A stretch of DNA of 62,416 nucleotides, filler included, from 3 parts of 3 records of this genome joined end to end with filler, not necessarily neighbours in it, one strand, 5' to 3'; shown: positions 4,609 through 10,513, counted from the first letter of the whole stretch. The notes: generated by a model from the sequence alone, not told the origin. A program made the numbers and translations.

Positions 4609-6348
4609 TCAGTAAATATCTTTGCGAGTATTGTAGACATTAAACTTGCCTGTTGGAGTCACCAGACGCGGGTCTTTAATCACGTGCTTGAGCTTGCGCG
4701 TCTTGTCATCGACGATCACGATCGCTGACTCCTGTTCCATGCCATTCCAGACGGAGAACCAGACTTCATCGCCTGCGGAGTTGTACTCAGGCTGCACCAC
4801 TCTGGCTGGACCTTCGGTAATACCCGCCCACTTGGCAATTGGCAGTACTTCATAGCCCGCATCAAGGTCATCGATATTGTAAACAGCAACCGACTGACTC
4901 ACACTTTCCTGCGGATGCAGCGTGTTGTCGACCCAGAGGTTACGAGACGTGGGGTGCGTTTTAACGAACAGCGAACCACCGCCCTGCGCTTTCAGTGTGC
5001 GTACCACTTTCCAAGCGTTCTGAGGGTGCCCTTCAGGATCCGTACCGATAAACGTCATGTTCTCGTTACCCAGCGCCGAGGTAATCCATACAGGCCCAAA
5101 CTCAGGGTCTACGATGTTGGCGCCGCGCCCGGGATGCGGAATCTTGGTAGCGTCAACCAGCGCTACGATCTTCCTCTCCTTGGAGTCAACCACTGCAATT
5201 TTGTCAGACTGGTTGGCAGCAGTCAGGAAGTAACGATGCGTGGCATCCCAACCACCGTCGTGCAGGAACTGAGCTGCTTCCAGGGTGGTCACAGAAAGTG
5301 CATCGATATTGCTGTAGTCAACCAACAAAATCTTGCCGGTCTCCTTCACATTGACGATGAACTCAGGGTGCTCGTGAGAAGCAACAATGGCTGCGACTCT
5401 CGGTTCAGGATGGTACTCCTGAGTGCCTACCGTCATACCGCGGGTTGATACAATTTTAGTAGGCTTGAGATCCGCGCCATTCATCATCACGAACTGAGGC
5501 GGCCAGTAGGCACCGGCAATCGCGATCTGATCCTCATAACCTTCGAACTTTGAGGTTTCCACGGAGCGCGCTTCCAGGCCGATTTTTACTGTGGCAACAC
5601 GCTTGGGTGGGCTCATAAAGAGGTCGATCATATCAATTTTCGCATCACGCCCGATGGTGTACATATATCGGCCAGAGTGCGATGACCGGGAAATGTGCAC
5701 GGCATAACCTGTCTTGATTATTTCGATGATATCTTTGCTTTCGCCGTCAATCAGGGCGACCTCACCAGAGTCGCGCAGCGTGACTGAGAAGATGTTGTCG
5801 ATATCATAATCGTGTTGAGGTTTTTTGGGACGCTCTGACTCAGGCACCAATACTTCCCAGGTATCCATCATCTCAGCCATGCCCCATTCAGGAGGCTGAG
5901 GTGGTTCATGCTGCAGGAAACGCGCCATCAGATCGACCTGCTCCGGCGTAAAGTCGCCAGAGGTGCCCCAGTTGGGCATGCCCGCAGGCGAGCCATAATT
6001 AATAAGCGCTTTGAGGAATTCCGTACCACGCTCCTGGGTGATATCGGTCGTCAAAGGCTTGCCAGTGGCACCCTTGCGCAATACACCGTGACAGCCGGCA
6101 CAACGCTCGAAGTAAAGCTTGGTAGCAACTTCGTATTCTCTTTGCGTCATGTCTGGCGCTCCTGGCGAAATCACACGCTTCATCTCGCCTGAAGGGACCG
6201 GTGCACCCTTGTATGCCATCTCACCGGGTGTTACGCCGGGATGGTCAGTTGTATCCTGGGCGATAGCAGCCGCAGCAGCCAGACCCAAAGTCATGGAAAC
6301 CAGACCCGCGCCGGCGCGTCGCTTCCACATCGATGACTTTCTGTTCAT
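4609..6348 (-). CDS. nirS: Cytochrome cd1 nitrite reductase
   Basis: Signal peptide; heme c motif CAGCHG followed by VLRKGATGK; d1 propeller motifs [40 protein letters not shown]. Start placed at ATG 6348 behind a GAGGGG RBS. Confidence 0.97.
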
Positions 6349-6391
6349 GGTGTTACCCCTCTTTGCTCTTGCGAACATTCGCAACTTTGTA

Positions 6392-6410
6392 GATGCATAA
6401 TATATGCATC
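6392..6410. promoter_or_regulatory. NsrR-type operator overlapping the predicted nirS -10 element
   Basis: GATGCA-TAATATA-TGCATC with perfect inverted half-sites, about 44 bp upstream of nirS; the minus strand contains TATTAT (6402-6397). Confidence 0.75.
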
Positions 6411-6424
6411 TTTATGTTGTTAAC

Positions 6425-6438
6425 ATGATCGGCATCAA
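6425..6438 (-). promoter_or_regulatory. FNR/DNR (Crp-Fnr) box upstream of nirS
   Basis: TTGAT-GCCG-ATCAT on the minus strand, one mismatch to TTGAT-N4-ATCAA. Centre 6431.5 is -41.5 from a start site near 6390. Confidence 0.7.
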
Positions 6439-6450
6439 TTTCCTGTCCAG

Positions 6451-7980: not shown

Positions 7981-8014
7981 TCAAAGTGCGGCAAGCATAG
8001 ACAAGACAATATAA

Positions 8015-8033
8015 GATGCAAATGATCTGCATC
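8015..8033. promoter_or_regulatory. NsrR-type operator in the divergent nirI / TonB-receptor promoter
   Basis: GATGCA-AATGATC-TGCATC with perfect half-sites and the same 7-bp spacing as the nirS site. Confidence 0.72.
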
Positions 8034-8069
8034 ATTTTATTGATACGCTGCATGCTGTCTACTGCACGC

Positions 8070-8435
8070 ATGAATTGGTTTTTAAGTTTGTGTCTTCTGA
8101 TTTGGAGCACAGCAGGCGTCACTGATGACAGCCTAGTGAATGAACGACTGACCGCATCCACTGCCGCCATGGAGAATCACTGGCAAGTGGACTGCGCATC
8201 TACGCTGCATACGCTGACCGTGCCCATTGCGCTGGTACCGGCGAATGCTCACGCTGTGCTCGCAGCTTCTCTGGAGAAATGTCGTTATATTTACCAACCT
8301 CCGGGCGACGTCACAGCGGACGACTGCCGGGATTACGCGGCTCTACTACAGGCATGGAACACCGCCGACGACGATGCATTAACGACCGCGCTCAAAAGCA
8401 GCCGGGACTGTCTTTCAACACTGGAACTTGAATGA
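8070..8435 (+). CDS. Small exported protein of unknown function, translationally coupled to the TonB receptor
   Basis: Signal-peptide-like N-terminus MNWFLSLCLLIWSTAG; four Cys in the mature part; stop overlaps the receptor start (ATGA 8432-8435). Confidence 0.65.
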   Translation: MNWFLSLCLLIWSTAGVTDDSLVNERLTASTAAMENHWQVDCASTLHTLTVPIALVPANAHAVLAASLEKCRYIYQPPGDVTADDCRDYAALLQAWNTADDDALTTALKSSRDCLSTLELE

Positions 8436-10513
8436 AAATTACCCGTCGACGATCGTCCGCTGCACGCGCAAAATACTATTTGGGCACTGTTTTTCTATTA
8501 CTGGCGCATGAAAGTACCAGTGAGCCACTGGCCACACTGACACTTGAAGAAGTGGTCGTCACAGCCAGCCGCGTGGAAGAGCGACTGCTCGACAGCAGCG
8601 CCAGCTTGACTGTACTGACCTCTACGGACCTGTCCCGTATGACCGGCAATGGCGTTGCCGACTTCATGCGTGACGTGCCCGGTGTGCAAGTCTCCGATTC
8701 AGGCCAGGCCGGCCTGAAGCGTATCCGTATTCGCGGAGAGGACTCTCGCCGCAGCGCCATTCTGGTGGACAGTTACGAGCTGTCGGATCACAGCGAAGTG
8801 GGCACCCCACTGACCATTCATCCGGATATGATTAGCCGTATCGAAGTGTTGCGCGGTTCCGGCTCAGTGCTATACGGCTCCAAGGCACTCAGTGGCGTCA
8901 CCAATCTGATCACGCTAAAAGGGGGCACCGCGCCTCTGCAGGCGACAGTAAAAGGCGGTTACGATAGCAGTACCGAAGGCGAAAATCTCTTTGTGAGCGT
9001 GCACGGCAACCGCGGTGGCTGGAACTACCGCCTTGCCGCTGCCGACAGCGACCACGGTTTACGCCATAGCCCCGAAGGACGTGTTCAGAACACCGCTTTC
9101 GAGAATAGCGGCTACTATGGGTTTTTGGAAAAAACAGCCGGCAACCATACTATGGGGCTGACGTGGGACCGCTATGAATCCAGCTCCGACATCTTCGTGG
9201 AGGAATCCGTACGCAGTACTTTTCCGATAACCGACCTGACGCTCAGCACGCCACAGCGTGATCGCGAACGATTCGCCATCGACTACAACTGGGAGCCCGG
9301 CGTCTTCGCGCTGGATCGCTTAACGGTGTCTGCTTTTACTCAGGACAGCCTGCGTAACTTCCTCACTGATACAGAGACAGTCTTCCTCAACCGCGATATT
9401 GATACCAGCAGCACCTTGCGTAGCGATGGACTGCTGGTGCAGGCGGACTGGCTGCCTGTTGGCGATCACAGCCTGGTCAGCGGCCTGCAATACAGTAATG
9501 ACAACGTGCGCCAGACGCGCGAGGTGAATACCCTTTCCTGGACTCCCACAGCGGTTACCGGCACAGACCAAATCAGGGATGAAGCGAGTATTCGCACCCT
9601 GGCTCTGTTCCTGCAGGATCACTGGAGTGTAAGCGACCGACTAACGGCGATGATCGGGGCCCGCTTCTATCAGATAGACGGCGAACTGGATGAAAGTGAC
9701 CGGCCAGGACTGACGGCCGATTCTCTTGATTCGGACAGCCACCTGATCGCATCGGCGGGACTCAACTGGTCGCTGAACCCGGGCAGCGCCCTACGTGCGA
9801 ATATTTCCGAAGGGTACCTGTACCCCTCGCTGATGCAGCTGGCCACTGGTGCTTATGCGGGACCCAACTTTATTAACCCCGAGAGCGACCTGTCCCCGGA
9901 GACCAGCATTAACTATGAACTTGGCTGGCGTCTGATGGCTGACCAGTGGACGGTCGATACGGCGTTGTTCTACGCTGATTCCACAGATTATATTGACCAT
10001 GTTTTCTGCACTGCGGCCGACGCCTGCCTGGGGTTCAATGACAAGGTGTATCGCAACATCGGGTCTTCAACAGCACACGGGGTAGAGCTCTATCTGGCCT
10101 GGCAAAGTGAAGACCAGCGCATGCGTCCTTATGTGAACCTTACCTGGATGCAGCGCAATAACGATTTCGGGACTTTCGATACCTGGAAAACCGGCATTCC
10201 TTCGCTCGCGGGTCGCGCGGGCACAATACTTGAGCCGGGCTTATCCGGCGCTTGGTCGTCACTGTGGGTAGACCTGTATCTGCGCGGCGAAAGTGGTTCT
10301 GCACTGCTTGAACCCGGCTCCCGCGGCGTTGTGGAATCCACGCGCAGTGGCTGGTATACGATCAACACGGCACTGGGCATGAGTATGGGTGAAAATGTGC
10401 TGCTGGCATTGGAACTGCAGAACCTGCTGGATCGCAGCTATCGCGAGTCAACCGAGAACCTGCTCGCTGCGGGGCGCAGTGCGTCCTTGAAGCTTACCTG
10501 GAATATTAACTGA
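8432..10513 (+). CDS. TonB-dependent outer-membrane receptor (heme/cobalamin-receptor-like)
   Basis: TonB box EEVVVTASR; plug motifs D.MRDVPGV, IRIRG and ISRIEVLRGSGSVLYGS.ALSGV.N.IT; loop NPESDLSPE; C-terminal NLLD..Y...GR. Confidence 0.92.
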   Translation: MKITRRRSSAARAKYYLGTVFLLLAHESTSEPLATLTLEEVVVTASRVEERLLDSSASLTVLTSTDLSRMTGNGVADFMRDVPGVQVSDSGQAGLKRIRIRGEDSRRSAILVDSYELSDHSEVGTPLTIHPDMISRIEVLRGSGSVLYGSKALSGVTNLITLKGGTAPLQATVKGGYDSSTEGENLFVSVHGNRGGWNYRLAAADSDHGLRHSPEGRVQNTAFENSGYYGFLEKTAGNHTMGLTWDRYESSSDIFVEESVRSTFPITDLTLSTPQRDRERFAIDYNWEPGVFALDRLTVSAFTQDSLRNFLTDTETVFLNRDIDTSSTLRSDGLLVQADWLPVGDHSLVSGLQYSNDNVRQTREVNTLSWTPTAVTGTDQIRDEASIRTLALFLQDHWSVSDRLTAMIGARFYQIDGELDESDRPGLTADSLDSDSHLIASAGLNWSLNPGSALRANISEGYLYPSLMQLATGAYAGPNFINPESDLSPETSINYELGWRLMADQWTVDTALFYADSTDYIDHVFCTAADACLGFNDKVYRNIGSSTAHGVELYLAWQSEDQRMRPYVNLTWMQRNNDFGTFDTWKTGIPSLAGRAGTILEPGLSGAWSSLWVDLYLRGESGSALLEPGSRGVVESTRSGWYTINTALGMSMGENVLLALELQNLLDRSYRESTENLLAAGRSASLKLTWNIN

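Follow-up and report, generated by a model that had tools for sequence, protein, structure and literature searches.

How does a bacterium supply cytochrome cd1 nitrite reductase, NirS, with heme d1 when the genes for making that cofactor are missing from beside nirS? The question is posed by a 62-kb stretch of DNA, referred to herein as the window, whose first contig (positions 1-19663 in view) carries an intact nirS (4609-6384, minus strand) and, upstream of it, nirI (6451-7980, minus strand), which encodes a NosR-like membrane FMN/Fe-S protein. Divergent from these is a two-gene unit on the plus strand encoding a small exported protein and a 693-residue TonB-dependent receptor (TBDR; 8432-10513). 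NirS needs heme d1, is periplasmic, and has the cofactor inserted in the periplasm. Judging from gene content and conservation amongst relatives of this locus, we consider it moderately probable that the receptor imports heme d1 from outside the cell, or a very late derivative of that cofactor, and so supplies apo-NirS in the periplasm.

An intact nirS without heme d1 genes in the window

The product of nirS matches the full Pfam Cytochrom_D1 profile (473 bits) and also contains a cytochrome c domain. It aligns to Pseudomonas aeruginosa NirS (1bl9_A, the same sequence as 1nir) over residues 58-591 with ~70% identity, as estimated by eye, and is identical to it at CxxCH, Met88, Tyr10, Arg156, His182, His327, His369 and Arg372, which we take to be the positions of the ligands in the P. 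aeruginosa enzyme. The features of a cytochrome cd1 are all found: the c-heme CxxCH and Met, the d1 propeller, the proximal His, two distal His and the N-terminal Tyr. An earlier note, made from this sequence alone, had called nirS intact because of its heme c motif and d1 propeller, and the profile match and the alignment of every ligand bear this out.

That note had also reported that no heme d1 genes accompany nirS. When the 62-kb window was searched by tblastn with the nirC, nirF, nirD, nirL, nirG, nirH, nirJ and nirN products of a relative, the only match was a cross-hit of NirN to nirS, and Pfam searches gave the same picture.

Receptor and heme d1 genes amongst relatives

A gammaproteobacterial metagenome-assembled genome (MAG; G002, locus L001) shares with the window exactly positions 4611-10513, comprising nirS, nirI, the small gene and the receptor gene, at 76% nucleotide identity. 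The flanks of this locus are unrelated to the window and contain glycosyltransferase and heparinase genes, a second TBDR gene and IS66. G002 has one match to PF02239, the family matched by nirS, nirF and nirN, and none to PF17805, the family of NirDLGH. As G002 is the closest genome bearing the module, we sampled 251 genomes of its family, which by protein names is the Halieaceae.

Within this sample the receptor was found at E<=1e-100 in 39 genomes and full-length nirS in 40, and the two occurred together in 32. NirJ scored above its curated cut-off in six (G048, G056, G062, G119, G133 and G173), with a positive control detected in 5/5 cases. The seven other receptor genomes comprise five with nirS or nirI fragments at a contig end (G069, G097, G100, G235 and G243), one with two adjacent nirS pieces (G223) and one that is ambiguous (G165). 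Amongst 31 pairs of receptor and nirS on the same contig, 29 lie within 3.3 kb of one another and two are 19-22 kb apart. Thus, in all 39 receptor genomes but one ambiguous MAG, nirS or nirI stands beside the receptor gene or the contig ends there.

The receptor was present in 30/34 nirS genomes that lack NirJ, and additionally in G098, where it is cut by a contig end; it was present in two of the six NirJ-positive nirS genomes and not in the other four (Fisher p = 0.0095 or 0.005 for receptor versus NirJ within the family, kinship uncorrected). When TBDRs of other families are included, all 34 NirJ-less nirS genomes carry a nirS-linked TBDR. The receptor occurs in nirS genomes without NirJ, NirF, NirN and NirDLGH, and PF17805 is absent from 5/5 well-assembled receptor genomes, one of which (G125) is a single contig of 4.23 Mb. 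Ferrochelatase was found in these same five genomes. A complete operon, nirC-nirF-nirD-nirL-nirG-nirH-nirJ-nirN, lies beside nirS, nirI and the small gene in G056, so the d1 pathway is readily detected in this family where it occurs.

We compared NirS itself across these genomes. The d1 ligand residues are invariant in 21 NirS proteins, 15 of them from NirJ-less genomes, and in a NirS tree the NirJ-positive proteins are scattered amongst the NirJ-less ones. By these alignments, NirJ-positive and NirJ-less genomes have the same NirS enzyme. A longer form of NirS, with 706-764 residues and an extra N-terminal cytochrome c domain, was also observed in NirJ-less genomes (loci L054, L055, L056, L057, L076 and L077); a heme-receptor-type TBDR abuts it in 5/6 loci.

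A TBDR in the place of the heme d1 operon

The receptor loci fall into two main types. In type 1, found in 13 genomes, the receptor is 69-83% identical to that of the window, and in most of the ten loci fetched the order is hemerythrin/outer-membrane protein, nirS and nirI, divergent from the small gene and TBDR, which are followed by norDQBC, NnrS and NsrR; the flanks differ in G171 and L001. In type 2, the receptor has ~50% identity, the small gene is divergent from nirI-nirS, and the TBDR gene converges on nirS. A variant of this arrangement is found in G125, where the TBDR gene is directly downstream of nirS in the same direction. In the NirJ-positive loci of G056 and G133, it is the nirJ-nirN end of the d1 operon that converges on nirS, at the place where the type 2 TBDR gene sits. 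As the small gene and nirI are also present in NirJ-positive loci, the variable element is the d1 operon versus the TBDR.

Other nirS-linked TBDRs were found in genomes with the longer NirS: in G185 (two loci), G160 and G080, a different TBDR gene abuts or overlaps nirS in 4/4 loci. These proteins are 24% identical to the receptor of the window and form two groups with 37-40% identity between them; across the independent nirS-linked lineages as a whole, identity is 33-40%. All score best on the heme/hemoglobin receptor model TIGR01785, two of them above its cut-off of 316.85 bits (340 and 338 bits) and two below it (265 and 260 bits). The nirS-linked TBDRs are of several lineages, all of them nearest to tetrapyrrole receptors.

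Class-wide and metagenome comparisons

We extended the comparison to 400 genomes at the level of the class, centred on G002, which is not a random draw. PF02239 was matched at E<=1e-60 in 71 of these genomes, nearly all of which had two to four matches, corresponding to nirS plus nirF and nirN. Besides G002, two genomes had nirS only and lacked NirJ: G529, where a heme-receptor-like TBDR gene (284 bits) lies directly upstream of nirS, and G676, to which we return below. In 42 nirS loci fetched from the class, d1 genes were beside nirS in 38, with NirJ included in 33. A TBDR was found in 0/42 of these loci, using a query panel that without this receptor family detects 48/48 known distant TBDRs. 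Five weak TBDR hits in the class loci were rejected as artefacts, arising from residues 1-86 of an over-extended query ORF (open reading frame) lying over the 3' end of nirS. The prediction that receptor homologues would sit beside nirS and anti-correlate with d1 genes was thus borne out, with a nirS-linked TBDR in 34/34 NirJ-less genomes versus the receptor in 2/6 NirJ-positive genomes and a TBDR in none of the 42 class loci.

A metagenome scan yielded 29 loci with a receptor of at least 41% identity. Fourteen of these have nirS and/or nirI adjacent, one has the nor side only, and the rest are mostly too short. Amongst the sequencing runs searched, a single DNA metagenome contained a fraction of 0.35 of the words sampled, and no RNA run was listed.

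Sequence and predicted fold of the receptor

The receptor of the window matches the Pfam Plug (74.1 bits) and TonB_dep_Rec_b-barrel (128.6 bits) domains. No domain was found ahead of the plug, and by this search no N-terminal signalling domain is seen. Its AlphaFold2 model (predicted local distance difference test, pLDDT, 80.8) consists of plug and barrel, and is matched by TBDR structures in the PDB at E values from 1e-27 to 1e-32. Residues 38-47, LEEVVVTASR, resemble what we take to be the TonB box consensus, and are invariant or nearly so in 61 homologues, amongst which many Arg and Tyr residues are also invariant.

Of all TBDR models, TIGR01785 gave the best score for this receptor, 178.3 bits, as compared with 144 bits for the sister-tier receptor of G125. 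The vitamin B12 receptor (BtuB) models TIGR01779 (94.8 bits versus a cut-off of 599.7) and NF007926 (80 versus 836), the siderophore receptor model TIGR01783 (115.9 versus 223.5) and the PqqU model NF041535 (41.7 versus 1200) all score below their cut-offs, and the ZnuD model is also far below the heme family score. In fold searches the top match was PhuR with heme (8the, template-modelling score, TM, 0.77), with OprC amongst the top matches (TM 0.74-0.78, 14% identity). There is no His in EGYLYPSLMQLATGAYAGPNFINPESDL, the segment between the YLYPSL and NPESDL boxes; classical heme receptors presumably carry a conserved His between the corresponding FRAP-like and NPNL-like boxes.

Predicted regulation of the locus

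The earlier note had pointed to a perfect GATGCA-N7-TGCATC operator at 8015-8033, in the divergent promoter region of nirI and the small gene. We found this site (GATGCAAATGATCTGCATC) and a second perfect copy at 6392-6410 (GATGCATAATATATGCATC), just upstream of nirS. A third site, which a pattern scan located between nsrR and norE (11202-11220), has a single mismatch; these are the only occurrences in the window, and all three are intergenic in the nir/nor contig. The perfect sites equal what we take to be the NsrR consensus, GATGYA-N7-TRCATC. Both are kept in the G002 locus, the one upstream of nirS with one mismatch, and an NsrR-type box is present in the divergent region of 10/10 type 1 loci fetched. 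These sites suggest that NsrR controls the locus and that nitric oxide (NO) would derepress it. Hexamers resembling a -10 promoter element lie across the site at 8015-8033 on either strand, such matches being no more frequent than in shuffled sequence. A reading of the operator as a Fur box was dropped, with 11/19 positions fitting, by eye, the Fur consensus as we assume it to be.

Type 2 loci have perfect palindromes of FNR/DNR type in the region of the small gene and nirI and upstream of nirS. Moreover, a TG-N6-ATCA[AT] box precedes the annotated start of 11/12 type 2 TBDR genes by 38-99 bp, the background frequency of such boxes being 0.10 per 200 bp.

The small exported protein

The description of the divergent unit as a small exported protein plus a 693-residue TBDR was correct as to the presence of both genes, but the start of the small one needs revision. 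Its ORF is open from 8016, where the ATG lies inside the operator, and its orthologues agree only from an ATG at 8070. The protein is thus probably of 121 residues (8070-8435, plus strand), with a predicted signal peptide, and its stop codon overlaps the start of the TBDR gene (ATGA). It has four Cys and the motifs VNER, EAHW.VDC and IYQPPG; 23 orthologues aligned with it have four to six Cys across the family. An AlphaFold2 model is helical (pLDDT 80.4). Pfam and NCBIfam searches assigned it to no family, and the best score in a protein atlas, 0.80, was uninformative. Comparison of its fold with the PDB gave no match at E<=0.001, the best being cytochrome c' four-helix bundles (E 0.5, TM 0.44), which we regard as a lead only. 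A complex prediction with NirS, in which the alignments went unused, returned a score of 0.00; this is no verdict and counts neither way.

The small gene always stands beside nirI-nirS in loci of the Halieaceae type, and its family was undetected in the 42 class-sample nirS loci. The small protein was considered, and then rejected, as a dedicated partner of the TBDR, because the small gene accompanies nirI-nirS in the NirJ-positive genomes G056, G119 and G133 without the receptor. In G190 a single ORF of 794 residues (L041 9333-11717; protein P0018) covers both the small protein and the TBDR, and may be either a real fusion or the product of a lost stop codon.

Gene content and origin of the nirS contig

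The genes of the first contig are, in order, an insertion sequence (IS) fragment, SirB, NnrS, an alginate-export outer-membrane protein, hemerythrin, nirS, nirI, the small ORF, the TBDR gene, nsrR, norE, the nor operon and further IS fragments. NnrS (1587-2801, minus strand; Pfam NnrS 361.7 bits), a haem/copper membrane protein of NO-stress regulons, is syntenic in relatives. The outer-membrane beta-barrel of the alginate-export family (2886-4112, minus strand; Pfam Alginate_exp) is often beside nirS in relatives; it occurs with either form of NirS, both in loci that lack d1 genes and in two that have them (L199 and L081). A bacteriohemerythrin-domain protein (4193-4579, minus strand) was recognised by Pfam and NCBIfam. 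The nirI product matches Pfam FMN_bind and Fer4_5 and scores 552.5 bits on the NCBIfam NosR model (cut-off 1000), its C-terminal half matching best. Beyond the TBDR gene lies a regulator of the Rrf2 family (10706-11158, plus strand; Pfam Rrf2), whose best match amongst Rrf2 models is NsrR (NF008240, 140.3 bits, below the cut-off of 182) and which exceeds the cut-off of the Rrf2 superfamily (124.5 versus 73.3 bits). It is followed by norE, COX3-like, with a small COX4_pro-like gene (11488-12616, plus strand; Pfam, NCBIfam), and by the nitric oxide reductase operon norC-norB-norQ-norD (12871-17821, minus strand; Pfam).

The window consists of three contigs joined by assembly linkers of the form N44-TTAATTAATTAA-N44, at 19664-19763, where the nirS contig ends and the next begins, and at 48912-49011. 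Adjacency across the linkers, for example of the nirS contig and a methylmalonyl-CoA mutase gene, is therefore artificial. The second contig starts at 19764 inside that gene, and is 99% identical in nucleotide sequence to genome G001; the mutase ORF (19716-20405) looks truncated only through the contig start and is continuous in G001. The earlier note had described a 19.6-kb IS-bounded island. IS fragments do lie near both ends of this stretch, namely a transposase fragment comprising the C-terminal part of an integrase core at 482-970 (plus strand; Pfam rve_3), near the contig's left end in view, and fragments found by domain scans at 18548-19546, at its right end; the stretch itself, however, is an assembly contig and not a mapped insertion, and its left end is outside the view.

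Do this contig and the other two come from one organism? G001, which is the same species as the second contig and 99% complete, lacks the whole first contig and has no match to PF02239 or PF17805. Amongst 40 genomes of the family of G001, PF02239 (E<=1e-20), NirJ and the receptor were each found in 0/40. The named relatives of the receptor are Halieaceae, and PabB of the second contig points to relatives in Spongiibacter and Zhongshania. A 77-nt palindromic element with 24-nt inverted arms, resembling repetitive extragenic palindromes or miniature inverted-repeat transposable elements, occurs downstream of the TBDR gene (10542-10618) and of norQ (15680-15756); with one to two mismatches it is also found in the Halieaceae genomes G171 (three hits) and G002 (two hits), and it is not in G001. 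The nirS contig has a GC content of 54.1% versus 54.9%, and its tetranucleotide correlation is 0.84-0.86 versus 0.90 within the other contigs. By these comparisons the nirS contig is Halieaceae-like DNA that was either recently transferred or mis-binned, and composition does not decide between these.

That, in this window, the nirS contig is a mis-binned or contaminant Halieaceae contig, foreign to the organism of the other two, is a serious possibility that in our estimation falls somewhat short of even. It would account for the linker at the junction, the absence of the contig from a genome 99% identical to its neighbour, the distribution of the palindromic element and the conflicting affinities of the receptor and PabB. 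Against it, the GC and tetranucleotide figures make the contigs compatible, and the IS fragments near either end are consistent with an island that was transferred. Mis-binning would leave the reading of the receptor as a heme d1 importer untouched, since that reading rests on the relatives.

Proposed heme d1 import and competing explanations

How, then, would NirS obtain its cofactor? We propose that heme d1 made and released by other denitrifiers would be carried by the receptor across the outer membrane into the periplasm, where it would load the apo-d1 site of NirS, so that import would stand in for the missing nirFDLGHJ(N) pathway. In type 1 loci, NO would derepress the promoters of nirI, of the small gene and TBDR, and of nirS through the NsrR-type operators; in type 2 loci the TBDR gene would respond through its own FNR/DNR-type box. 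The cargo, the control by NO through NsrR and a spontaneous loading of NirS without NirF or NirN are all inferred. Because NirS is periplasmic and d1 is inserted there, transport across the outer membrane alone would suffice. No ATP-binding cassette (ABC) transporter or periplasmic binding protein was found amongst the Pfam-annotated flanking ORFs of several module loci, most relatives' flanks having been screened with the window proteins only; the lack of an inner-membrane transporter amongst annotated ORFs is in line with a cargo that is used solely in the periplasm. What leads to heme d1 import is the combination of a strongly conserved NirS in ~35 genomes without known d1-specific genes and a TBDR that is its constant, co-regulated neighbour.

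Several observations weigh against this proposal. For this strain, the absence of d1 genes is established for the 62-kb window only, and the nirS contig may extend to the left beyond the window. Since almost every d1-less nirS genome comes from a single family, the within-family statistics overstate independence. Two fragmented assemblies, G062 and G173 (L052 and L053), have a d1 operon as well as a nirS-linked receptor; they may be mixed bins or true intermediates. In G676, the sole exception amongst NirJ-less nirS genomes, the 5 kb upstream and the 10 kb downstream of nirS contain no TBDR gene. The receptor scores under every curated TBDR subfamily cut-off, and heme, siderophore, copper and B12 transporters score alike in the fold search, which does not separate substrates. 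The Halieaceae distribution of the palindromic element also belongs here, in that it favours a foreign origin of the contig. Finally, two groups of receptors bear on the nature of the cargo. A branch with 44-47% identity to the window's receptor (L098, L100, L106 and L107) is paired with NnrS near a gene cluster resembling those of heme-copper oxidases, and its flanks, viewed over up to 10 kb, contain no nirS; and G125, G136 and G171 have no match to the heme-receptor family at E<=1e-40 other than the nirS-linked TBDR, which could serve as a general heme receptor.

Two side observations concern the loci just named. G173 has two NirN-like matches on different contigs. The oxidase-like cluster (L098 1-9500, L107 1000-9500 and L100) encodes COX1, a COX2-like protein, SCO1 and a cytochrome b/Fe-S/FlpD fusion, and is possibly an alternative NO reductase.

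The explanation that the earlier note considered more mundane is NO-induced uptake of heme or iron to supply NorBC and NirS. More broadly put, the receptor would take up heme b or another iron source under NO or low oxygen, for NirS, NorBC and NnrS or for the repair of NO-damaged iron proteins, with the linkage to nirS reflecting a shared regulon. The best curated family of the receptor, heme/hemoglobin receptors (albeit below cut-off), the top fold match to heme-bound PhuR, and NsrR and FNR/DNR-type boxes that fit a stress regulon are all in keeping with it, as are the 44-47% branch and the three genomes discussed above. Yet such uptake does not predict a TBDR in 34/34 NirJ-less genomes against 0/42 class loci, nor the receptor in only 2/6 NirJ-positive genomes, and it leaves unexplained why a single position holds either the TBDR or the d1 operon. 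These bacteria make their own heme, with ferrochelatase in 5/5 genomes; no heme ABC transporter, heme binding protein or heme oxygenase was found amongst annotated neighbouring ORFs; and the receptor lacks the His presumed typical of heme receptors between its C-terminal boxes. The contrast between d1-less and d1-making loci weakens this explanation, which we now regard as unlikely, though as the chief rival to heme d1 import.

The linkage to nirS would equally be expected if the receptor imported a precursor, such as dihydro-heme d1 or a compound of the didecarboxysiroheme type, or another isobacteriochlorin accepted by NirS, and d1 and its close derivatives are indistinguishable by these analyses. 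However, the proteins known to process such precursors, NirN, NirF and NirJ, are missing, and all residues through which P. aeruginosa NirS contacts d1 are retained in this NirS; we find this version quite improbable. That heme d1 is made by an unrecognised route, with the link to a TBDR an accident of gene order in one lineage, could draw on the shared ancestry of most cases in a single family, which might explain part of the pattern, but is highly improbable given that six members of that family have canonical, easily detected operons, that no other conserved unknown enzymes accompany nirS, that three to four unrelated TBDR lineages in several gene orders show the same link, and that the module has moved as a unit into different flanks.

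Relation to known systems and implications

PqqU (YncD) of Escherichia coli is a TBDR that imports pyrroloquinoline quinone (PQQ) for a periplasm-facing apo-dehydrogenase, E. coli being unable to make PQQ. By analogy, piracy of PQQ through PqqU and uptake of B12 through BtuB would be the closest precedents for what we propose. As with PqqU, the apo-enzyme is kept, the cofactor pathway is absent, a TBDR would scavenge the finished cofactor, and delivery to the periplasm would be enough; the receptor differs in that it is no member of the PqqU family, its proposed cargo is an iron isobacteriochlorin, and its gene is linked to and co-regulated with that of the client enzyme. BtuB likewise supplies a costly, complex tetrapyrrole to cells that do not make it, with the same ecological dependence on producers, but the receptor scores far under the BtuB cut-offs and B12 must also cross the inner membrane.

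PhuR, ChuA/ShuA and HasR resemble the receptor in its best curated family match, its fold and its proposed tetrapyrrole cargo, and other nirS-linked TBDRs are members or near-members of their family. In contrast to them, the receptor falls below the TIGR01785 cut-off, has no His between its C-terminal boxes, and is encoded beside nirS under NsrR or FNR/DNR-type sites rather than in a Fur-type context. NosA/OprC is a TonB-dependent copper channel linked to maturation of N2O reductase in Pseudomonas, and provides a precedent for a TBDR on which a periplasmic enzyme of denitrification relies for its cofactor; OprC and the receptor share only 14% identity, and NirS holds no copper. Canonical nirS-nirCFDLGHJEN clusters have the same NirS, often with the same nirI upstream, whereas here there is no biosynthetic operon, and its place is taken by a TBDR in the sister loci.

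To our knowledge, no heme d1 importer is known. A full-text literature search, judged from listings and the beginnings of abstracts, returned nothing on d1 uptake, d1 auxotrophy or nirS-linked TBDRs. The genes nirK, nirS, norBC and nosZ have been reported in some Halieaceae (PMC10100682), in passages that are silent on d1. Cofactor piracy by a TBDR is of a known kind; heme d1 as the cargo, and the ecological meaning that follows, would be new.

As a wider proposal, we give about even weight to the idea that a guild of marine gammaproteobacteria, comprising most of the nirS-bearing Halieaceae sampled and the carrier of this contig, are heme d1 auxotrophs that retain a canonical NirS and, in place of the nirFDLGHJN pathway, obtain the finished cofactor of other denitrifiers through a denitrification-regulated TBDR. 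If this is true, the receptor would be the first known heme d1 transporter, and heme d1 the first respiratory cofactor of the nitrogen cycle to be shared as a public good. The receptor would also be a tool with which to detect d1, study its uptake and load recombinant NirS in vivo. In an abundant coastal clade, nirS, the standard marker of denitrifiers, would mark organisms that depend on a community cofactor, and counts of the gene would give too high a figure for denitrifiers that are self-sufficient. In these bacteria, the supply of d1 from producers would then govern nitrite reduction, as is the case with B12.

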